From a virus, in UHGV virus genome UHGV-0118719: DNA of 18,049 bases, one strand, 5' to 3'. Positions 432-9,847 of this stretch are shown piece after piece. The position numbers and the translations under genes were made by a program. Below the pieces are notes generated by a model that made no database searches, was not told where the DNA came from, and was given only the letters and a program-made list of their open reading frames with translations. Every line of letters starts with the position of its first letter. The stretch's first letter is position 1.

Positions 432-698
432 ATGTTTGTTGAACTGGTTTATGACAAGCGAAATGTTGAGGGGCTCCAGGGGGCCAGAGAGATCATCCTG
501 GCTGAGCTAACCAAGCGTGTGCACCAGATTTTTCCTGATGCAGAAGTGAAGGTGAAGCCGATGCAGGCAAACGGCTTGAATAGCGATGCCAGCAAAAGCG
601 ATCGGGAAAAGCTGAACCGCATGCTGGAGGAAATGTTTGAAGAGTCAGATATGTGGCTGGTTTCTGAGTTCCCGACCGTTCGACAGGTTGGCCTTTGA
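432..698 (+). CDS. dinI: DinI-like protein (DNA-damage-inducible protein I family; prophage-type, MFVELVYDKRN... N-terminus)
   Basis: 88-aa ORF; AGAGGA RBS 5 nt before the ATG; sequence pattern matches remembered DinI and prophage DinI-like proteins (FPDAEVKVKP..., EEMFEESDMWLVSE); LexA box upstream. Confidence 0.85.
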   Translation: MFVELVYDKRNVEGLQGAREIILAELTKRVHQIFPDAEVKVKPMQANGLNSDASKSDREKLNRMLEEMFEESDMWLVSEFPTVRQVGL

Positions 699-754: not shown

Positions 755-793
755 CCGCCGCTCATTCTTGCATACGATGGGCGGCGGATTTTT
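755..793. terminator. rho-independent terminator after the dinI-like gene; also sits at the 3' end of the convergent tail-fibre gene
   Basis: 11-bp stem ccgccgctcat (755-765) / atgggcggcgg (777-787) with one G-U pair and an 11-nt loop, followed by ATTTTTC. Confidence 0.55.
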
Positions 794-1995
794 CAGCTTC
801 CAGGCCGCAACGCATCGAGCTTTTTCTTTAAATCTTCAACTTGCTGCATTAAAGCCAGAATCGCTTCATGATGTAGCGCTGCCGCAACGCCGTAAGTATC
901 TGGAGAGAGCACTCCTTCCACCACAGTTCCATCTGGGAGTTTACGATCACCCCCCTCAGTTACTGCTTGCGGGAAAACGTTCTTAACATCCTGCGCGATA
1001 AATCCTATCCCCCATTGTCCGGTATCTTTTCTCGTCCACGAGCAACCTTTTAGCATTTCCATCTTTTTGAGCGGGTCCTCAATTCTGGTCACCCCATCCT
1101 TCAGGCGGCCATCTGAATTCGGAACCCAAGCGCCAGGTGCTACAGCGTTGCCATTTAATTTAATAAAGCTCCAGTTGGTTCCTGAACTTGCGTTTGCTAC
1201 CTGAATATTCCCTGTTAAAGAACCATCCGCAGCCATTTGGGAGTAAAGGGCGCACACAGCAGCATCCGTTCCGTTGGCCCACCGTAGCAGGGAACGAATT
1301 AAACCGCCGACTGATCCTTCAGTTACCGTTGGTTGCGTATAACTCGTAATACTTCCATTAACTGCACCGCCAGTTTTCTGATCGATAGTATTTAATCTTG
1401 TATCGTTACCTGCAGCCACCGTTCCCGCTGTTGCGCCAATGTCTCTCGTGGCACTGTTTCCCAAACCGAGGCTTGTGCGAGCACCTGATGCGGTTGTTGA
1501 ACCGGTACCGCCCTGTCCAACAGATAGCGCTGTCGTGAGTCCGCTGAGCGAAGTAATATCGCTGTTTGCACCTTTTGCCGCCTTGCCTGAAAGTGATGTA
1601 GTAATGCTATTCCAGGCTGGGCCCGTCCATGTCGTTCCATCCGGCAGTGTTACTGTTACATTGCCGGTTCCAGAAAAAATGCTTTGCCAGTTCTGTTTGT
1701 CGTAATTCAGTCCTCGCAGCGCTTCAGCACTTTGCGCCACCAGCGCGGCAGTTACCATGTTCAGAGCCACACGGGGAACCGCTGACCAGGCAGCGCCGGC
1801 CTGAGTAGGGCCGGTAAAGTTGCTGACCAGCGTAAGCTGCGCATTACTCTCTACAGATTTTACGGGCAATGTATACGACACGCCGCCAACAGTAGAGACA
1901 ATAAAATCACCTGCAGCGAGTTCAGTTGCGAATGAGGTTCCGGAACCGCCAACAATAGCGGACCCGTTTGTCAGGGTGATGGTGCCTGCCGACAT
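793..1995 (-). CDS. tail fibre protein with C-terminal S74-type intramolecular chaperone (autoproteolytic) domain
   Basis: 400-aa ORF; AGGAG RBS (2002-2006, reverse complement) 6 nt before the ATG; N-terminus MSAGTITLTNGSAIVGGSGTSF typical of tail-fibre anchors; Gly/Ser/Thr-rich middle; the last ~107 aa begin SDGRLKDG..., resembling the SDxRLK start of endosialidase / T5 pb1 chaperone domains. Confidence 0.8.
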   Translation of the reverse strand: MSAGTITLTNGSAIVGGSGTSFATELAAGDFIVSTVGGVSYTLPVKSVESNAQLTLVSNFTGPTQAGAAWSAVPRVALNMVTAALVAQSAEALRGLNYDKQNWQSIFSGTGNVTVTLPDGTTWTGPAWNSITTSLSGKAAKGANSDITSLSGLTTALSVGQGGTGSTTASGARTSLGLGNSATRDIGATAGTVAAGNDTRLNTIDQKTGGAVNGSITSYTQPTVTEGSVGGLIRSLLRWANGTDAAVCALYSQMAADGSLTGNIQVANASSGTNWSFIKLNGNAVAPGAWVPNSDGRLKDGVTRIEDPLKKMEMLKGCSWTRKDTGQWGIGFIAQDVKNVFPQAVTEGGDRKLPDGTVVEGVLSPDTYGVAAALHHEAILALMQQVEDLKKKLDALRPGS

Positions 1996-2016: not shown

Positions 2017-2052
2017 AATAAAAAACCCGCCTCGGCGGGTTCTTGTTTTTTT
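2017..2052. terminator. bidirectional rho-independent terminator between the Cor-like lipoprotein gene and the tail-fibre gene
   Basis: A-run, 6-bp stem acccgc (2025-2030) / gcgggt (2035-2040) with loop ctcg, then TCTTGTTTTTTT; gives a T-tract on both strands. Confidence 0.65.
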
Positions 2053-2291
2053 CATTTTGTACAGGTCGAGCCGGTAAAGTTGTTTTTACTTACCCAGCGC
2101 CAGTTGAAAGGATATCCAGCTTTGTATTCAATCTGATTTGCTACTCGCCTCACACCATAGACCTGAACAGTCTGTTCTTGTCCACCGACAACTATTACGG
2201 CCTCACATACTGGATTCTGCTTCTCAAGGAGATTGGATGAGCAAGCAGAAAGAAGACTGCAAAAAAGAAACATGACTGATATTTTTTTCAT
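2052..2291 (-). CDS. small outer-membrane-type lipoprotein, Cor-like (candidate superinfection-exclusion lipoprotein)
   Basis: 79-aa ORF with ATG start; signal peptide MKKISVMFLFCSLLSAC with lipobox LSAC; AT-rich; occupies the position next to the tail-fibre gene where N15/phi80/HK022/T1-type phages carry cor. Family assignment is unverified. Confidence 0.65.
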   Translation of the reverse strand: MKKISVMFLFCSLLSACSSNLLEKQNPVCEAVIVVGGQEQTVQVYGVRRVANQIEYKAGYPFNWRWVSKNNFTGSTCTK

Positions 2292-2370: not shown

Positions 2371-2397
2371 TCAAAAAATCGATCGTTTTAAACGATC
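2371..2397 (-). terminator. GATC-containing dyad (gatcgtttTaaacgatc) followed by a T6 tract on the minus strand; weak terminator or operator
   Basis: 17-bp near-perfect palindrome at 2381-2397 directly after the stop of the 224-aa ORF, with an A-run at 2373-2378 on the plus strand. Confidence 0.35.
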
Positions 2398-2399
2398 AT

Positions 2400-3074
2400 T
2401 TAATCAAATGCAGCCGTATTGATAGCGGTCAAAGAAATTCCTGTGTTGGTTCCTCCACCTGGTGAGCCAGTTCCGGTAGATGTACCACCTGCGTTTATTC
2501 TCGTACTGCCACCATTAAACCTACAAGATGAATAGGCATTTATAGTGTAGATAGTTGGGGGCTGAGTGGAGTTATTAACGATAATCGTCTGACCAAGCTG
2601 AGCCGGAGCGACAGCCCACGACCCGGACAGTGTCTGGTCAATGTTAATCCCACCGCTTGCACCTGGACTCCCCACAGTTTGTAGATCAGAAAGCACCCTT
2701 GATTCGTTCGTCAGAACAAGCTTACCGGAGGCATCCCAGATAGCAAATCCCCACGCAGGAAGTGTTTGAGGAAATATTGAAAATACATATGCTGTAAGCG
2801 TAAAGCTCTGGTTATAGGGATTAACGCCACTAATATAGACATTTCCTCCGATGCGATATGACATGACTGGTGTCGGTTGTGCAGTATCAGTCGTTTTTAT
2901 GAAAACCATTACCGGATAATCGGCAGGCACCGAAAGATATTGTGCCACCTGTTGGGAGCTGCCATTAGCTGAGGAATTAAATGAGTATTTCCCATAGAGG
3001 CAGAAAGGCGTTGATTGCGGAGTGACGAAGGGATTCCCATTATCCATTAAAATCATTGCGCCAAAGTCGGACAC
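2400..3074 (-). CDS. hypothetical protein (224 aa), second of two coupled post-J ORFs; Gly/Ser/Thr-rich C-terminus
   Basis: ORF begins at a GTG (3072-3074) that overlaps the upstream TAG by 1 nt (TAGTG); GGAGAAGG RBS inside the end of the upstream ORF; shares a WDASG motif with the upstream ORF. Confidence 0.6.
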   Translation of the reverse strand: MSDFGAMILMDNGNPFVTPQSTPFCLYGKYSFNSSANGSSQQVAQYLSVPADYPVMVFIKTTDTAQPTPVMSYRIGGNVYISGVNPYNQSFTLTAYVFSIFPQTLPAWGFAIWDASGKLVLTNESRVLSDLQTVGSPGASGGINIDQTLSGSWAVAPAQLGQTIIVNNSTQPPTIYTINAYSSCRFNGGSTRINAGGTSTGTGSPGGGTNTGISLTAINTAAFD

Positions 3075-3376
3075 TATGCCTTCTCCATAAAAACGATCAG
3101 CTCACATTTCGAGGCCGGATAATTACCAAGCCCAGTGTCAGATGCGGACGTCACAGTTATTGAGTTACCTGATGCAACTATTCTTCGCCCTACGCTGTTA
3201 CCTCCTTCATCAAGAGAAACAACAAAACCAACTTTAAAACCTGTGGGCACAGTGAAACTCCAAGAACCTGAGTTCTGACCTGCTGCAAGTGGAATGCGGC
3301 CTACTACCGATACTGGTTTAATGCCATAGTTATTAGGCCTTCCGCTGGCATCCCATGTTTGTATTCCCCATGACAT
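3074..3376 (-). CDS. hypothetical protein (100 aa), first of two coupled post-J ORFs
   Basis: ATG at 3374-3376 overlaps the J stop by 1 nt (TGATG); AGGAG RBS 8 nt upstream, inside the end of J; WDASG motif. Confidence 0.6.
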   Translation of the reverse strand: MSWGIQTWDASGRPNNYGIKPVSVVGRIPLAAGQNSGSWSFTVPTGFKVGFVVSLDEGGNSVGRRIVASGNSITVTSASDTGLGNYPASKCELIVFMEKA

Positions 3377-6300
3377 CAGAATACTCCTGTCAGTTTTCCA
3401 ATCTGTACGCGCAGGACGCCGTTAGCATCCCTTATGCTGTCAGTAACATTCGTTGTCTTTCTTGCGCCCTGCCCGTCACTGCCATAGTTTTCCCAAGTGC
3501 CACCTTTATCCAGTTTCCATCCAGATTGCCCGGCAACGTAATTGTTGGACTGGATAAAGTTACCGATTTTGGCATTGGTGATCGTGCCATCCTGAATAAA
3601 CGCTGAGCTGATAAACACCTGACCGTTTACCACCGCGAACGGCGAATACTGGGTATCACCACTGCCGCTCATCAGCACGAACTGGTTAGCGTTGAAACCA
3701 ACCCGCGTGACTACCGGCTTCCCTGCCTCTGCAAGCACTGCAATAGACATCCCGGCGTTATAAATCACCCCGTTTATTCTCACGCCCGTTTTGAGGGTGT
3801 GGATTGCCGAAGCACCGGAGGCATCTACGACAGCTGTAAGCTTGTCTTCCAGGGAAGCGGTAACATCCTCAATCTGCGCCTGCACCTGCGTCGAAAGTTC
3901 GGCCATTGCATTATCAACTTCAGCAATCGTCGTTTTAACCACCAGAATATCGGCACGCACTTCTCCGTATTGTGCCCACTGGTGCTCAACAGTTCCATGG
4001 TTCGCCAGGGCGTTCTGCAGTATTCCCTCAATGTTGGTATCGATGTCACCAGTCAGGCGTTCTCCGTCTGCAGAGGTTAGGAAATCATCTGCGATATCGC
4101 CCAAATAATCATCGGCGTTATCGTTAGACATCCCCCTGATCCAGTCGGTATACCCGGACTCGTTACCCGTTCTGTCGACCAGCTGCGCGCGGTACCAGAA
4201 TTCCTGCCCTGCTTTAAGGCCGAGCTGGGTGTATTCCGCAGATGGATAAGGCACGTCTGAGAGCAAGAGTGGATCTGAAAAGTCACTGTTGGCAGTGTAC
4301 TGAATTTCCGTTTTTAGCGTATCGCCGGTGTTTGCCGGGAAACCCCAGTTAAGACGAATCCCCCAGTTAATGCCCGTGGCTGTGAATCCTACTGGCTTAG
4401 GCGGATTACCTACTTTGCCGGTCAGTGTCTTCTCTTCTGAATATCCCCATCCTGAGGAAATTTCAGCGGCATTAATTGCGCGCACGCGCACCAGGTAGCG
4501 CCCGGCATAAATCCCCGGGACGTCAAATGACGTGGTGGAGCTGCGAGGCATGTTCACCCAGTTTCCGTCGTTGCGGCGCCACTGCCCCTCATAGGCGATA
4601 GCGTTCTGCGCCTGGTCCCAGCTCACGCGCATCGTTTCGACGCTGATATTCTGCTGAACAACCGAAAACGAACTGATCGTGATGTTGGCTGGCGGGGACT
4701 GATTACCGGGCGGAATTACACTTATTGGCCGCTGGTCGATGATGGCGCCGGTATCGATACGGGCATACTTATCCGGATCGTGAAAAGCACCAGTAATCGA
4801 AAACGTGCCGTCGTTATTATCAGCGACGCTGATAACACGATATTGCTGTGCATAAAGCTCGTCGGATTCGACAATCCATACCGATTCGACTGCCGGTGTT
4901 TCGCTGTATGCCGTGGTCACGGTGACAGCCCGACCGTTTACGCTCTGTATCGTCCTGCTCTGCGATGCGCCAGACGGCAGGTTAACCATAAGACGGCTTC
5001 CGGCAACGGCTGCGGAATCACGATCAAGCGTGATAACGCGACCATTAACCGCGCTGATACGCCCTCCCATCACCTTTCCGGATAACAGATCATCGGCAAC
5101 CGCGATAATATAACCAGGCTGCGGAATGTTTCCGTCCAGCCCGACATCAAACGAAACAACGCGATCCTTGTTATTGGTGAGAATACCCCAGCGCCCCTTT
5201 CGGTTCGCCTCTGACTGCCTGGTGCAGCCGATGGCTGTCATTTCCAGCTGATTGAAGCCGTACCGCGCCACCAGCGCCTGCTCAAATACCGGCTCCATCG
5301 CGTCGGCATAAGCGTTACCCGGGTCTGACCATGAAACCAGCGCTGTGGTGTAGCGGCTTTTCGTGGTGCTGCTCGAATAGGTGAAGCGACCGCCAACAAC
5401 GTTAGCGCGCGTATAGCTGTAATCAACATCGCGCGGCATGTCAGCCAGGGCCACAATCTGATCCCCGCCCCAGTAGGTCATGCCACGGAAGATAGCGGCA
5501 AAATCACGCAGGACTGTGTAGGCGTCGTTCCGGTCCTGAATGTACACGTTGCAGGTATAGCGTGGTTCTGTACCGTTGCCCCCTTTGCCGTCTGGTACCA
5601 TCTGATCACAATACTGAGCAACCTGATAAAGCGTCCATTTATCAATATTCGCAGCGGTCAAACGGTGCCCAAGGCCGAACCGGTCAGAAACAACCAGGTC
5701 GTAAAAAATCCACGCAGGGTTATCCGTCCATGCCCACTTAAACGCACCGGTCCATGTACCGCTATAAGTGCGGGTTTCAGGGTCGTAGGTATCTGGAACG
5801 CGGATAACGCGGCCGCGCGGTTCGCATGAAATTTGAGGAATAGAGCCGTTGAACTGGCTTGAGTCGAATTCGACGTAGAGCAGCGCGGTGTTCGGGTAGC
5901 GCAGTTTGGCGTCAATCACCTCGGTGAAGCTCTGCAGCATCATCGTGTCGCCGATCTTCGCGCTGTTGGCGTCAGAGGTAATCTTACGCAGACGTATTGT
6001 CCATGTGCTGCCAGCCTGCGGTAAATCGATACGGTGGCTGCGCTCATAACCAGACGTCGTTTTGCCGGTCACGCTGGTATTGAGTACCGTCTGCCATGTG
6101 CCGCCGTCAGTCTGCAGGTCAATCGCATAATTGACCGAGTAACCCACCAGATCGCCGTCGTCTTCCTGTTTGAAAAGCGAGGGCCATTTAAGACGCAGGC
6201 GAACTGCTGAAAGCTGCGTATTGGTAAACGTGCGCGTCCAGGCTGTGGCACTTGATACCTCAGTTCCTACGCTGATCTCGTTTTCGGTACCGGGAATACC

Positions 6301-6571: not shown

Positions 6572-6595
6572 TAAAAAAGCCACCCAAAGGTGGCT
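6572..6595 (-). terminator. rho-independent terminator on the minus strand, ending about 10 nt upstream of the J start codon
   Basis: Plus-strand A6 then 7-bp stem agccacc (6578-6584) / ggtggct (6589-6595) with loop caaa; on the minus strand this is a hairpin followed by TTTTTTAT. Confidence 0.55.
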
Positions 6596-6726: not shown

Positions 6727-6987
6727 ATGGGTTCGATGTTAGAACTGGAAAAAGAAGTGGCAGAGCTTAAACAAAAGCTGCTTACGCATGAAATTGCAAC
6801 TGGCCTGATTCTATCGGACATTGTGAAATTACTGGACATTGCCCGGCCAGGCGCACTCGATGCTCTGACTAAAAACTATCAGGCAGGGCAAGCAAAAATC
6901 CCAGAATCAGCTGCACGTAATGATCCGCACACAATTGATGCGTTCACGCGCATCCTTAAAGTTTTAGAGGTGGCATCAAAGAAATAA
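6727..6987 (+). CDS. hypothetical small protein (86 aa) on the opposite strand to the tail operon; coiled-coil-like N-terminus
   Basis: AGGAG RBS (6716-6720) 6 nt before the ATG at 6727; AT-rich compared with flanking tail genes; 3' end overlaps the convergent minus-strand ORF by 32 bp. Confidence 0.5.
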   Translation: MGSMLELEKEVAELKQKLLTHEIATGLILSDIVKLLDIARPGALDALTKNYQAGQAKIPESAARNDPHTIDAFTRILKVLEVASKK

Positions 6988-7273
6988 TTAAATCGAGCTT
7001 TTCATTGAATATTTCTTCATGAGTTTTAGCGGCCTCATTCTGGGCCGCTGTTACCGTTCCACCGAAAACCCCTGCATCACCCTGCGAAATCTTTCCCTCC
7101 TTTACTCGCAAACTCCAGCCATTACCGGTGATGGTCGAATGAATAGCGCCACCTGGCCGTAGTGCGTTCTGAATGGCGGAATTGACGATTGCCGGGTTAT
7201 GCAGCTCTGCTATCTCCACCTGCAGGCTCGCGATGGTTGCCTCAAGCATGCTCATGCGCTCTTCTAAAGTCAT
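6956..7273 (-). CDS. hypothetical small protein (105 aa from the ATG at 7271-7273) between I and J
   Basis: AGGAG RBS 7 nt upstream of the ATG at 7273; the longer track ORF (to 7375) would overlap I and lacks an RBS; coiled-coil-like N-terminus. Confidence 0.5.
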   Translation of the reverse strand: MTLEERMSMLEATIASLQVEIAELHNPAIVNSAIQNALRPGGAIHSTITGNGWSLRVKEGKISQGDAGVFGGTVTAAQNEAAKTHEEIFNEKLDLIISLMPPLKL

Positions 7274-7310: not shown

Positions 7311-7901
7311 TTACTGTTGATCTTCGACATAAATTCCGGCAGAAATAATCGCTCCGCCGATTCGACGCTTACCATAAAGCAGAGGCACCGGGTACCCCTG
7401 TGCCGCGGTGTTTGTTACACCACCGAACGCGTATGAGGCGCGGTTATCTGAACTCTGTTTGCTGGCCAGCCCCGCTGGTTGAGGGGAAAGCATCTGAACA
7501 ACCCCGCCAATCATCATTGCGGCACCGAATTTGTATAAGAATGGTGATGCCGCAGCCCAGGGTGTGAAATTAAGCACCGCCCCAACGGCAACCAGAACTG
7601 CACCAAGTATTGTCTGGAGTAATCCGGCCTTTTTGCTCCCGATAATCACCGGGACAATCCTGACCACTTCACCAGTTACCGGAAAACCTAGGTCATCAAC
7701 TCCTATGTTTTTCTTTCCTTTAAAAATGGCAAAGGTTAGTCCGCGGCGCTTGCTGTTTACCATATAACTTTCAAACCCGGTGATTGTTTTTGCGAGTGCT
7801 ACACCTGCTTCAGAAACTTTACTGATAAGTCGCCAATGAGTTTTACCAAATATTTTACCGGGTTCGCCGCCGAGCTCAATTCGAGTCATTGCTTCAGACA
7901 T
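7311..7901 (-). CDS. I: tail assembly protein I
   Basis: 196-aa ORF; AAGAGG RBS 5 nt upstream; C-terminal half resembles lambda gpI (Gly/Ala-rich hydrophobic segment, then VLPVLYG-like block, here YPVPLLYGKRRIG). Confidence 0.85.
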   Translation of the reverse strand: MSEAMTRIELGGEPGKIFGKTHWRLISKVSEAGVALAKTITGFESYMVNSKRRGLTFAIFKGKKNIGVDDLGFPVTGEVVRIVPVIIGSKKAGLLQTILGAVLVAVGAVLNFTPWAAASPFLYKFGAAMMIGGVVQMLSPQPAGLASKQSSDNRASYAFGGVTNTAAQGYPVPLLYGKRRIGGAIISAGIYVEDQQ

Positions 7902-7959: not shown

Positions 7960-8373
7960 TCAAAATGCTGTAGGGTAGATACCAAAATCACCGTTGGTTC
8001 CGTAACCAACTCTAAACATCAAAACCCCAGTATCTGTCACCTTACCCGACTGTTCGCTCATGCCTCCGCCACACATACCTTTGGGCCAAGCGCTAAAGAT
8101 ATGATCTCCAATTTTGGGATAGACCGTTACCTTTTGAGCTGTATCTAAGTCTGCGACCTCCTTGCCATCAACATAAACTCGGGTCATGCAGGCGCTGCCC
8201 ATAAAACCAGAGTCTCGTTTGATTATTACCTTGCCAGTCCCTTCTTTTTTTACTAGCAGTGTATTGCTGATAACCTGTTTTGCAGGAACATCCTGTGCTT
8301 GTTCATTTGTCACCGGCTTAGTTGCACAACCGGCAACCATTAAGATGGAGGTAAAAACTAAAATTCTTTTCAT
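7960..8373 (-). CDS. lipoprotein of unknown function (137 aa), accessory gene between K and I
   Basis: ATG at 8371-8373 preceded by AAAGGGGA; signal peptide MKRILVFTSILMVAGC with lipobox VAGC; the longer track ORF start at 8493 was rejected. Confidence 0.65.
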   Translation of the reverse strand: MKRILVFTSILMVAGCATKPVTNEQAQDVPAKQVISNTLLVKKEGTGKVIIKRDSGFMGSACMTRVYVDGKEVADLDTAQKVTVYPKIGDHIFSAWPKGMCGGGMSEQSGKVTDTGVLMFRVGYGTNGDFGIYPTAF

Positions 8374-8461
8374 ATCCCTATCCCCTTTGGTCAATTTTGC
8401 CAAAAGAGTAGCAGGGATCGAGCGGTAGCAAAACCGAATGTTATCTTGGTTCACGCGCCCT

Positions 8462-8971
8462 TTAAATACCGGGGAGATACATCTGTACTTCATCAGCTAC
8501 ACGCTCCCGTGCTGTGTGTAGAAGCCGCTTGCGGCCACCAACACCCCACTTGGCCATCTGGCTGGCGCACTGGCTGATCGCTTTGGTTTCGGTGTTAATC
8601 ACATGGTCGATTTTATTCAAGCGAGACATGGCATCGAACCCGCGACGCATTAGCATTTGAAATGTCTCATAGACTTTGATTTCAAAAAGCGGATTGAGCC
8701 AGGCTGCATAGCGTATAGCGATAAGTTCAAGCCCCCAGGAGCCCTGAAATGGTCCCCCCTTAATTGTCATAACCGATGCGATTTTCTTCGCATCGCTCAA
8801 GGCTTGAACAAATCGCCTTACTTGCTTGGTTTTGAGAAACTCACCTGGTCGCTGTGATTCAGTGGCTTTGCCTTCAGCCACCGCTGCGGCGTGGAGATCA
8901 TTAAGATTATAACGTCCTTCGTTATCGACACGAACTGATACGCCGTTTACAGATACGGTTGGATATTGCAT
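8462..8971 (-). CDS. KilA-N domain protein (169 aa)
   Basis: N-terminal ~110 aa fit the KilA-N/APSES-type pattern (V..VR.D.EG...L.DL......, GG.FQGSWG.ELIAIRYAAWLNP.FEIKVYE); ATG at 8969-8971 with AAGG RBS; inserted where lambda has no gene. Confidence 0.65.
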   Translation of the reverse strand: MQYPTVSVNGVSVRVDNEGRYNLNDLHAAAVAEGKATESQRPGEFLKTKQVRRFVQALSDAKKIASVMTIKGGPFQGSWGLELIAIRYAAWLNPLFEIKVYETFQMLMRRGFDAMSRLNKIDHVINTETKAISQCASQMAKWGVGGRKRLLHTARERVADEVQMYLPGI

Positions 8972-9136: not shown

Positions 9137-9847
9137 CTATAGAAGCGTTTTATATCTGACGATCTTCATCGTCCTTTCCTGCCAGTAGCCACCATACGGC
9201 ACGCGCTGGCTCAGATGTCCGTACAGGTGGTGCAGCAGCATATTTCCCTCCAGCAGAATTCCCGCGTGGTTCCACTTATCAGCCTGGACCTGCATGATCA
9301 CCATATCGCCGGGTTTCGGTGGCCCGTCGAATTCCCGGAAACCGCACTCATACCAGCAATCCTGATAGAAGTTGTCCGGATATTCGTTTTCCCACCAGGG
9401 ATAATCAACCCGGTAATCGTGGAGTTCGATACCATGCGTTTGCCGAAAATAGCTCATTACCAGCCCCCAGCAGTCGAAGTGTCCAAGCACAAACGGACGC
9501 TCCAGCAGCGGCAGTTCTCCGCGCGGCTGGATGGTGCGTAAATCCCCCTCCGGCCAGCTCACAATATGCCAGGGTAAAAGCGTTGCGTCGCATTGCGCTT
9601 TATCCAGTTCGCTCGGTTGCGTTGTGGCGTCAGGGTGACTGTGAACGATGGCGATCACCGTACCCCAGTCCTCAGCAGCGGCATAGCCTTCTGGCGACAG
9701 GTGAAAATGTTCTGTCGGCTCGGTAGCGAGGTTACTACATGGAAAATATTTCTCTACCCGGCTCTTTTGCGCCACCACGCCGCAACACTCACGAGGATAT
9801 TCAGCTGCAGCATGCGCCATAATCGCATCGATGGTTTTCTGACGCAT
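9137..9847 (-). CDS. K: tail assembly protein K (N-terminal MPN/JAMM-like, C-terminal NlpC/P60-like)
   Basis: 236-aa ORF that matches my recollection of lambda gpK over essentially its whole length (MRQ.TIDAIMAHAAAEYPRE.CGVV..., HSHPD motif, HFDCWGLV). Confidence 0.95.
   Translation of the reverse strand: MRQKTIDAIMAHAAAEYPRECCGVVAQKSRVEKYFPCSNLATEPTEHFHLSPEGYAAAEDWGTVIAIVHSHPDATTQPSELDKAQCDATLLPWHIVSWPEGDLRTIQPRGELPLLERPFVLGHFDCWGLVMSYFRQTHGIELHDYRVDYPWWENEYPDNFYQDCWYECGFREFDGPPKPGDMVIMQVQADKWNHAGILLEGNMLLHHLYGHLSQRVPYGGYWQERTMKIVRYKTLL

Follow-up and report, generated by a model that had tools for sequence, protein, structure and literature searches.

A prophage J protein of the N15 type ends in a fibre shaft, and small proteins encoded downstream of it probably read the receptor

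Background

In phage lambda, gpJ (PDB 8IYK, 8XCG-8XCJ) is made up of N-terminal hub domains, an FNIII-A domain, a helical shaft, a PF09327 beta-prism and an Ig_GpJ_C domain (residues 1001-1132) that binds LamB. The shaft has been described in PMC11101478, and its segment 841-861 changes from helix to beta when LamB is bound. Another arrangement is known from N15 (gp21, followed by gp22, gp23 and the Cor protein gp24) and HK225 (gp21-gp24), in which a J of 1061 aa has a terminator upstream and a side-fibre gene downstream of the locus. N15 is FhuA-dependent, as is also stated in a review in connection with Cor. In T1 (gp33) and in the 'bona fide RBP loci' of the Drexlerviridae and Dhillonvirus phages of the BASEL collection, J ends right past PF09327. 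Loci for RBPs downstream of gpJ were proposed by Maffei et al. 2021, and an AlphaFold-Multimer prediction has the J trimer capped by a small Dhillonvirus protein, a homologue of the protein called L below (PMC12309495). Two further systems recruit a separate outer-membrane-protein binder to the end of a J-like fibre. In DEV, gp56 recruits gp55 and the LptD-binding gp54, whose genes come directly after that of the fibre, the stop and start codons overlapping (PMC12892993). The structure of the Oekolampad RBP was solved in complex with LptDE (PMC12685063); its gene adjoins that of the J-like tail-tip protein, an arrangement also seen in the sister Dhillonvirus TheodorHerzl.

The window analysed here is a stretch of 18,049 nucleotides of the virus genome UHGV-0118719. 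It contains a J-like gene followed by two small genes (called S and L), a cor-like gene and a side-fibre gene (Table 1). An earlier note on this DNA had taken the last ~250 aa of J for a diverged host-range domain and FhuA for a candidate receptor.

Table 1 Features of the J locus in the window
Feature	Positions	Strand	Basis
Terminator-like hairpin just 5' of the J start codon	6578..6595	minus	also annotated upstream of N15 gene 21 and HK225 J
J-like central tail fibre / tip attachment gene, 1061 aa	3376..6561	minus	ORF list, translation, Pfam
C-terminal 250 aa of J (812-1061), with shaft, beta-prism and short tip	3379..4128	minus	N15/HK225 identity, hhalign, AF2
Helices predicted at J 816-853, corresponding to the upper alpha-helical shaft in lambda gpJ	4003..4116	minus	AF2, hhalign
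Coiled-coil-like segment (J 880-908), AEVDNAMAELSTQVQAQIEDVTASLEDKL	3838..3924	minus	hydrophobic periodicity
PF09327 Phage_Tail_Tip domain, beta-prism 'central straight fibre' (J 904-1040)	3442..3852	minus	Pfam E 1.3e-45
Distal tip, C-terminal 66 aa of J (996-1061), where S and L are proposed to dock	3379..3576	minus	tip identities
S, 100-aa protein, N15 gp22 family, phrog_557	3074..3376	minus	start overlaps J stop (TGATG); PHROG E 3e-34
L, 224-aa protein, N15 gp23 family, phrog_425, candidate FhuA-binder	2400..3074	minus	start overlaps S stop (TAGTG); PHROG E 1e-77
Terminator-like hairpin directly 3' of the L stop codon	2380..2398	minus	hairpin
Cor-like superinfection-exclusion lipoprotein, 79 aa, phrog_1119	2052..2291	minus	E 1.7e-24; N-terminal MKKISVMFLFCSLLSAC, lipobox LSAC
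Strong terminator-like hairpin after cor	2021..2044	minus	hairpin
Side tail-fibre gene, N15 gp25-like, C-terminal Peptidase_S74 intramolecular chaperone	793..1995	minus	Pfam, PHROG

The J protein and its C-terminal end

The window J is recognisably lambda-like in its central part, as the earlier note had held. Lambda J (NC_001416) aligns with it at 35% identity across residues 13-723 (BLASTP, E = 2e-126), and in a phmmer search the lambda J chains of the PDB were matched by residues 13-729 only. Like lambda gpJ, it carries the hub and FNIII-A domains (FNIII-A_GpJ, PF24801, at 92-218 with E = 1e-50; Phage-tail_3, PF13550, at 344-505), the helical shaft and the PF09327 beta-prism, all of them homologous and collinear; the Ig_J and Ig_J_second models of Pfam have no match in it. 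Unlike lambda gpJ, it has a 52-aa insertion in the shaft and no LamB-binding element: PF12421 (Ig_GpJ_C), for which lambda J scores 247 bits, does not match the window J, S or L in Pfam. In BLASTP, likewise, nothing significant links the C-terminus to lambda J (best 24% over 105 aa, E = 0.35), and the high C-terminal identity that would speak for a lambda-type receptor domain is not seen. The strings quoted in the earlier note do stand in the in-frame last 250 aa, and the difference from the LamB-binding end of lambda J was correctly noticed. Nevertheless, the broader claim that the last ~250 aa do not resemble lambda J is true of BLASTP but not of profile alignment, as hhalign finds this region to be distantly collinear with lambda J ~805-991 (probability 88%, E = 3e-6), with the 52-aa insertion; the alignment stops at lambda residue ~991.

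What occupies the end of the protein is the central straight fibre itself. Pfam places PF09327 at residues 845-972 in lambda J, 1016-1151 in T1 and 903-1040 in N15, and the window J ends only ~20 (21) residues past this domain. The AF2 monomer model of the 250 aa has a pLDDT of 83, and the top three Foldseek matches to it are lambda gpJ central-fibre chains, with marginal scores (best E = 1.7e-3, the remainder being noise). Helices are predicted at positions 5-42 of the 250 aa, and positions 1-36 are paired by hhalign with lambda 805-840. Domain searches, alignment and the predicted fold show these last 250 aa as a central-fibre shaft and not a diverged receptor-binding domain, the lambda-type Ig domain being missing.

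A coiled-coil-like segment had also been reported in this region. Residues 880-908 of J do have a hydrophobic periodicity peak at 3.5-3.6 residues, and a coiled coil is plausible for the state before infection, but the AF2 monomer model has beta strands, not helix, at this place. The segment lies within the 52-aa insertion and runs into residues that hhalign aligns with the start of lambda 841-861.

The window J is closest to the J proteins of N15 and HK225. Its last 250 aa are 92.8% identical to both N15 gp21 and HK225 J, and the C-terminus of T1 gp33 (PDB 9L9P) aligns with it at 171 bits. Shortly past PF09327 it carries the N15/T1 tip motif (...NNY..GW.LDK.GT.E..G....G..K.TN...S..D..G.LRVQ.G..TG..), and its final 61 aa can be aligned with the C-terminal end of DEV gp56 (PDB 9ZE4_N) at E ~1e-4. 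These comparisons show that the end of the window J belongs, by its sequence, to the J family of N15, HK225, T1 and phi80. A J protein without a receptor domain, accompanied by separate proteins encoded downstream, is the already known N15/T1 architecture and no new kind of system. The HK225 J gene is especially close, with ~100% identical DNA over the tabulated gene-oriented nucleotides ~2270-2930 and 96% identity over the first 720 aa.

The earlier note had called for alignment of the J end with J proteins of known receptor. Over the last 66 aa, the window is 97% identical to N15 and 74-75% to T1, phi80, HK022 and HK225, yet the BtuB phages reach 63-74% as well, and the tips do not discriminate FhuA from BtuB users. 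In the LptD phages, tblastn matched only the first 28-32 aa of the tip, with global identities of 41-51%. JakobBernoulli (FhuA) and KarlJaspers (BtuB), whose receptors were taken from BASEL table S5, belong to one genus; their tips are 95% identical, and the window tip is 72-74% identical to each. The tip does not encode receptor choice, since BtuB-dependent phages have a nearly identical one, and the proposal that the J tip determines the receptor was rejected on this ground. The view of the J C-terminus as a diverged host-range domain fails for the same reason, and also because no receptor domain is found in it.

It could still be argued that the J tip itself contacts FhuA and that S and L are assembly chaperones or accessory factors. 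The C-terminus of lambda J is a receptor-binding domain, the window tip resembles those of the FhuA-dependent phages N15 (97% identity) and T1, phi80 and HK022 (~75%), and a recombination junction marks where the tip and the cassette behind it change in concert. This explanation is nevertheless unlikely: beyond its sharing by BtuB phages, the tip occurs in 1109 phage records from many host genera (including Klebsiella, Pseudomonas, Ralstonia and Vibrio), J stops ~20 residues beyond the beta-prism without any globular domain, and the homologous fibres of DEV and Oekolampad use separate receptor-binding proteins.

The downstream genes and the likely receptor

The reading favored here looks for receptor specificity in S and L, homologues of N15 gp22 and gp23 which directly follow J on the same strand, with cor adjacent and in the same gene order as in N15 and HK225. 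The locus is a mosaic of known phages. Its J tip is N15-like; S and L are nearer to HK225, phi80, Fraca, mEp213 and Enterobacter prophages than to N15, to which S is 77% identical. For L, identity is 93-94% with Fraca and mEp213, 85% with the phi80 homologue, 77% with HK022, 66% with N15 and 50-54% with T1. For Cor, identity is only ~53%. The window phage is an integrated E. coli prophage beside yciA-ompW-trpA, whereas N15 is a linear plasmid prophage. The exact J protein is found in a prophage flanked by sequence 100% identical to E. coli, and eight metagenome contigs that carry it have E. coli DNA on their flanks; the window itself is matched by complete E. coli genomes at 86.7% identity at best.

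The distribution of this cassette was compared in nine FhuA-dependent phages and six phages using other receptors (LptD, BtuB, YncD, LamB), a small set. Homologues of S, L and Cor are present together in 9/9 of the former (T1, phi80, N15, HK022, ES18, JulesPiccard, PeterMerian, JakobBernoulli and PaulFeyerabend) and in 0/6 of the latter. The FhuA-dependent members of the Drexlerviridae and Dhillonvirus share it with the window, and the T1 tip is 74% identical, although the T1-type phages are virulent, have a longer shaft (J of 1131-1192 aa), carry cor on the opposite strand and are ~50-65% identical in S and L. The same association of cassette and FhuA across the BASEL collection is reported in PMC13164509. 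Because of the 93-97% identity of the J end to N15 gp21 and the confinement of the S/L/Cor cassette to the sampled FhuA phages, FhuA is a well-supported candidate, on sequence grounds, for the likely receptor of the window phage; the cassette is the stronger of these two arguments. The earlier suggestion of a receptor other than LamB, with FhuA as a candidate and the Cor-like gene as a relevant sign, is thereby supported.

Another receptor, for instance a different TonB-dependent transporter, is quite unlikely. L is only 50-66% identical to its T1 and N15 homologues, and a distant relationship links this three-gene system to the cassettes of BtuB-type phages, so the family does switch receptors. 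Yet L, so close to its phi80 and HK022 homologues, is a merely distant homologue (22-25% identity) of the 204-aa protein of the BtuB-type cassettes, Cor shares 52-56% identity with its counterparts in phi80, N15 and ES18, and all sampled carriers of the cassette with a known receptor use FhuA.

In databases, S and L are labelled 'outer membrane' and 'membrane associated' proteins, but neither has a signal peptide or a transmembrane stretch. S has an all-beta AF2 model (pLDDT 80). The stop and start codons of J and S, and of S and L, overlap by one base each. Given these overlaps, the hairpin after L, the position of cor on the opposite strand in T1-like phages (where S and L share the strand of J) and the lack of signal peptides, S and L look like members of the J operon. 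J lacks a receptor domain of its own and has adjacent, apparently co-expressed partner genes, as expected of a fibre with docked RBPs of the kind of T5 pb5, DEV gp54/gp55 and the Oekolampad RBP. A sequence search against the PDB found no solved structure for S, L or Cor, and no homology of S or L to proven receptor-binding proteins. The parallel with DEV rests on gene position, since S and L have no detectable similarity to any PDB chain; DEV and Oekolampad also differ from the window in using LptD, and DEV is a podovirus.

It is very unlikely that S and L are instead non-virion morons or superinfection-exclusion partners of Cor in the host envelope, with something else recognising the receptor: the two genes and cor are invariably linked in FhuA-dependent phages and PMC13164509 (2026) proposes their proteins as part of the Cor exclusion system, but, unlike Cor, they have no export or membrane signals, they are translationally coupled to J and have their own terminator-like hairpin before cor, T1-like phages separate them from cor by strand, published membrane-affinity estimates are low for proteins related to L (its Dhillonvirus homologue and two others of more distant kinship), and the DEV genes at the equivalent position (a parallel of position, not of homology) are essential.

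Proposed mechanism

The whole of these observations is probably best explained if the end of J is a shaft, S and L docked on its tip read the receptor, and the cassette sets the host range. The trimeric J tip would serve as a docking platform on which S and L assemble into the actual receptor-binding tip, with L probably binding FhuA and S acting as an adaptor. FhuA binding would then be relayed up the beta-prism and the helical shaft and open the tail, as in lambda. In the lysogen, Cor would inactivate FhuA and so exclude phages that use the same receptor. If S, L and Cor form an exchangeable host-range cassette together with the J tip, host range would not come from J alone, a view in keeping with the recombination junction that lies within the J 3' end.

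With S and L docked on the tip in this way, the 'host specificity protein J' of N15-, T1- and phi80-like phages would not itself carry specificity, which corrects a mistake of annotation, and receptor prediction should be based on what follows J, namely the two small genes and cor. For the window prophage, the prediction is that infection depends on FhuA and that the Cor of its lysogen excludes T1, phi80 and similar phages.

A bolder extension, to which slightly less than an even chance is given, would see the J tip as a universal socket, the FhuA-type pair (S and L) and the BtuB-type pair as diverged versions of one two-protein module, and J ~857-945 as metamorphic. In that case, L would attach to J through its N-terminal two-thirds and recognise the receptor with its C-terminus. 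By analogy with lambda gpJ 841-861, the heptad-like stretch J ~857-945 would be helical before infection and beta once triggered. Both the universal socket and the metamorphic shaft have already been hinted at in the literature.

The C-terminal end of J lacks a receptor domain

J, the lambda-J-like central tail fibre protein (1061 aa), is 35% identical to lambda J over residues 13-723 (BLASTP, E 2e-126). The C-terminus has no significant BLASTP match in lambda J (best E 0.35), and the lambda J chains in the PDB match query residues 13-729 only (phmmer). The earlier observation that this end of J does not resemble the LamB-binding end of lambda J is therefore confirmed. Lambda J has, from N- to C-terminus, FNIII-A, Phage-tail_3, Ig_J, Ig_J_second, PF09327 (845-972, the beta-prism or central straight fibre) and Ig_GpJ_C PF12421 (1001-1132, the LamB-binding Ig domain). 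The domain search of the window protein recovered FNIII-A (92-218), Phage-tail_3 (344-505) and PF09327 (904-1040) but not PF12421, and the protein ends at 1061. A profile of homologues of the last 250 aa is collinear with lambda J ~805-991 (hhalign probability 88%, E 3e-6), with a 52-aa insertion in the window protein (J 848-899) and no counterpart opposite lambda 1001-1132. The AlphaFold2 model of the 250 aa (pLDDT 83) begins with short helices and continues in long beta strands, and its best three Foldseek matches are lambda gpJ central-fibre chains. The absence of PF12421, the collinearity and the model matches therefore rule out a diverged receptor-binding domain: the last 250 aa are fibre shaft and beta-prism, and the receptor domain is missing.

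A coiled-coil-like segment had also been reported in this region, which is plausible for the state before infection. [quoted passage not shown] Despite this heptad-like periodicity, the AlphaFold2 monomer model gives long beta hairpins at J 857-945 (window 3727-3993, pLDDT >90). The closest structural match of the 250-aa model is lambda gpJ in its open, LamB-bound state, and lambda shaft residues 841-861 are helical before LamB binding and beta strands after it (PMC11101478). A conformation-switching shaft would reconcile the periodicity with the hairpin model.

Receptor specificity follows the downstream cassette

J was compared among phages with experimental receptors (BASEL table S5) together with T1, phi80, N15, HK022, ES18 and lambda. 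The J tips (last 66 aa) of JakobBernoulli (FhuA) and KarlJaspers (BtuB), which belong to one genus, are 95% identical, those of PeterMerian (FhuA) and FritzSarasin (BtuB) 76%, and the window tip is 72-74% identical to FhuA and BtuB phages alike. The J ends of LptD phages differ, and the YncD phage falls in between, with 56-58% identity over the last 60-66 aa. In all, 1109 phage records carry the tip motif, with hosts including Klebsiella, Pseudomonas, Ralstonia and Vibrio. Given this likeness across receptors and hosts, the tip cannot by itself encode FhuA specificity, and the claim of the earlier note that the J C-terminus sets host range fails, the more so as J has no receptor domain.

What does track the receptor is the set of three genes downstream of J, encoding S (100 aa), L (224 aa) and the superinfection-exclusion lipoprotein Cor. 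Homologues of all three follow J in 9/9 FhuA-dependent phages of the set, plus HK225, and in none of the six set phages using LptD, BtuB, YncD or LamB, which bears out the relevance to FhuA earlier given to the Cor-like gene. The window L is 93-94% identical to those of Fraca and mEp213, 85% to phi80, 77% to HK022, 66% to N15 and 54% to T1. Cor carries a lipoprotein signal and is 52-56% identical to Cor of phi80, N15 and ES18. N15, which we take to be FhuA-dependent, has a Cor that inactivates FhuA according to a review, and the association of S, L and Cor with FhuA has been reported across the BASEL collection (PMC13164509, 2026). The cassette and the near-identity to N15, and not the difference of J from lambda, thus make FhuA a well-supported candidate for the receptor. 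The earlier interpretation stands as far as the receptor goes (not LamB, probably FhuA); its mechanism needs correcting, since the protein lacks a receptor domain and specificity probably resides in the cassette downstream.

S and L as a putative receptor-binding tip

Several observations group S and L with J and not with cor. The final base of the J stop codon is also the first of the S start codon (TGATG), and S and L overlap in the same way (TAGTG). A terminator-like hairpin and a 108-nt gap separate L from cor, and cor is followed by a strong terminator of its own. S and L share the J strand in T1-like phages, where cor lies on the opposite one. Unlike Cor, S and L showed no signal peptide or membrane segment. 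The hairpin preceding J is unusual in an operon of late structural genes, and its presence implies that transcription reads through it or is antiterminated.

Features of the J locus and of two BtuB-type loci (window coordinates unless a locus is named)
Feature	Position	Strand	Basis or remark
DinI-family gene downstream of side-fibre gene	432-698	+	
400-aa fibre gene with Peptidase_S74 chaperone domain, after Cor ORF	793-1995	-	domain match
Strong terminator-like hairpin after cor	2021-2044	-	hairpin
Cor, 79-aa lipoprotein ORF, after L	2052-2291	-	ORF; phrog_1119
Terminator-like hairpin directly after L	2380-2398	-	hairpin
L, 224-aa ORF, after S	2400-3074	-	ORF
S, 100-aa ORF, first gene downstream of J	3074-3376	-	ORF
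J-like gene, 1061 aa	3376..6561	-	ORF list and translation
Last 250 aa of J (residues 812-1061), in frame	3379-4128	-	holds the strings quoted in the earlier note
Terminator-like hairpin just upstream of J	6578-6595	-	hairpin; annotated in N15 and HK225 too
Small ORF between I and J	6727-6987	+	phrog_23209
Small ORF between I and J	6956-7273	-	phrog_22477
Tail gene I	7311-7901		flanks the putative insertion
Lipoprotein-family ORF	7960-8493	-	phrog_890
KilA-N-type regulator gene	8462-8971	-	phrog_129
Tail gene K	9137-9847		flanks the putative insertion
Three cassette genes by J	L005 5882-7046	opposite to J	FritzSarasin (BtuB)
Three cassette genes by J	L007 4655-5815	opposite to J	KarlJaspers (BtuB)

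Published systems offer precedents for docking on a J-like fibre. One is gp56 of Pseudomonas phage DEV, a J-like fibre whose last 61 residues align with the window J tip; gp55 and gp54, the latter binding LptD, are encoded by overlapping genes and recruited to it (PMC12892993). The receptor-binding protein of Dhillonvirus Oekolampad, solved bound to LptDE (PMC12685063), is encoded beside the J-like gene of the tail tip, an arrangement seen in the sister phage TheodorHerzl, also a Dhillonvirus. In AlphaFold-Multimer models, a Dhillonvirus L homologue sits as a single cap atop the J trimer (PMC12309495), the F2-pyocin fibre, another homologue, is described as without a receptor domain (PMC13455828), and receptor-binding loci of this kind were proposed by Maffei et al. 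2021. Together with the gene linkage, these precedents make it most likely that the end of J serves as a socket on which S and L would form the FhuA-binding tip. S is predicted to fold as a small beta sandwich; the structure search gave it no significant neighbour and no detectable link to the lambda receptor domain, and sequence searches of the PDB gave no relatives for S, L or Cor.

The BtuB-type cassettes are distantly related to this one. In them, a 204-aa protein resembles the N-terminal two-thirds of L (34 bits by profile; E 2e-8 by BLASTP against PeterMerian L), a 91-92-aa protein weakly matches S, and an 89-aa lipoprotein matches Cor (36% identity). The two cassettes look like diverged versions of one three-gene system, which suggests that one part is conserved for docking while another varies and reads the receptor.

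The architecture of the window, a J lacking its receptor domain with the cassette genes downstream, has been described before in N15, T1, phi80, ES18, Drexlerviridae and Dhillonvirus.

Relatives, mosaicism and host

Over its last 250 aa, J shares 92.8% identity with both N15 gp21 and HK225 J, 87% with SaltyDalty and ~41% with phi80 and HK022; over the last 66 aa, identity is 97% with N15 and 74-75% with T1, phi80, HK022 and HK225. The C-terminus of T1 gp33 (PDB 9L9P, identified through PMC11945409) aligns with the J end at 171 bits. The structural modules of HK225, N15 and mEp237 match the whole window at about 90-91%. The HK225 J DNA is ~100% identical over the tabulated ~650 nt down to window ~3630 and falls to 63-68% past it, N15 being closest over the last 60-85 codons (81-92% nt); a recombination junction thus lies inside the J 3' end (window 3560-3630). 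The nearest relatives of S and L belong to other phages again (Fraca, mEp213, HK140) and to Enterobacter prophages. From these similarities, the J tip, S, L and cor appear to form one exchange unit.

Of the database matches to S with a named source, the nearest, at 95-96% identity, come from Enterobacter species. An identical J protein is encoded on 8 metagenome contigs, within a prophage adjoining yciA-ompW-trpA, a flank 100% identical to E. coli; the cassette thus seems to be shared across genera. On one of these contigs (L017), a resolvase/invertase gene follows the DinI-family gene beyond the window, and the host genes yciA-yciB-yciC-ompW start ~2.5 kb past its low-coordinate end, so the window lies near one prophage end.

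The KilA-N/lipoprotein pair at 7960-8971 looks like a moron-type insertion, since no such genes appear in the K-I-J annotation of HK225 and N15. The two small ORFs between I and J partly overlap on opposite strands.
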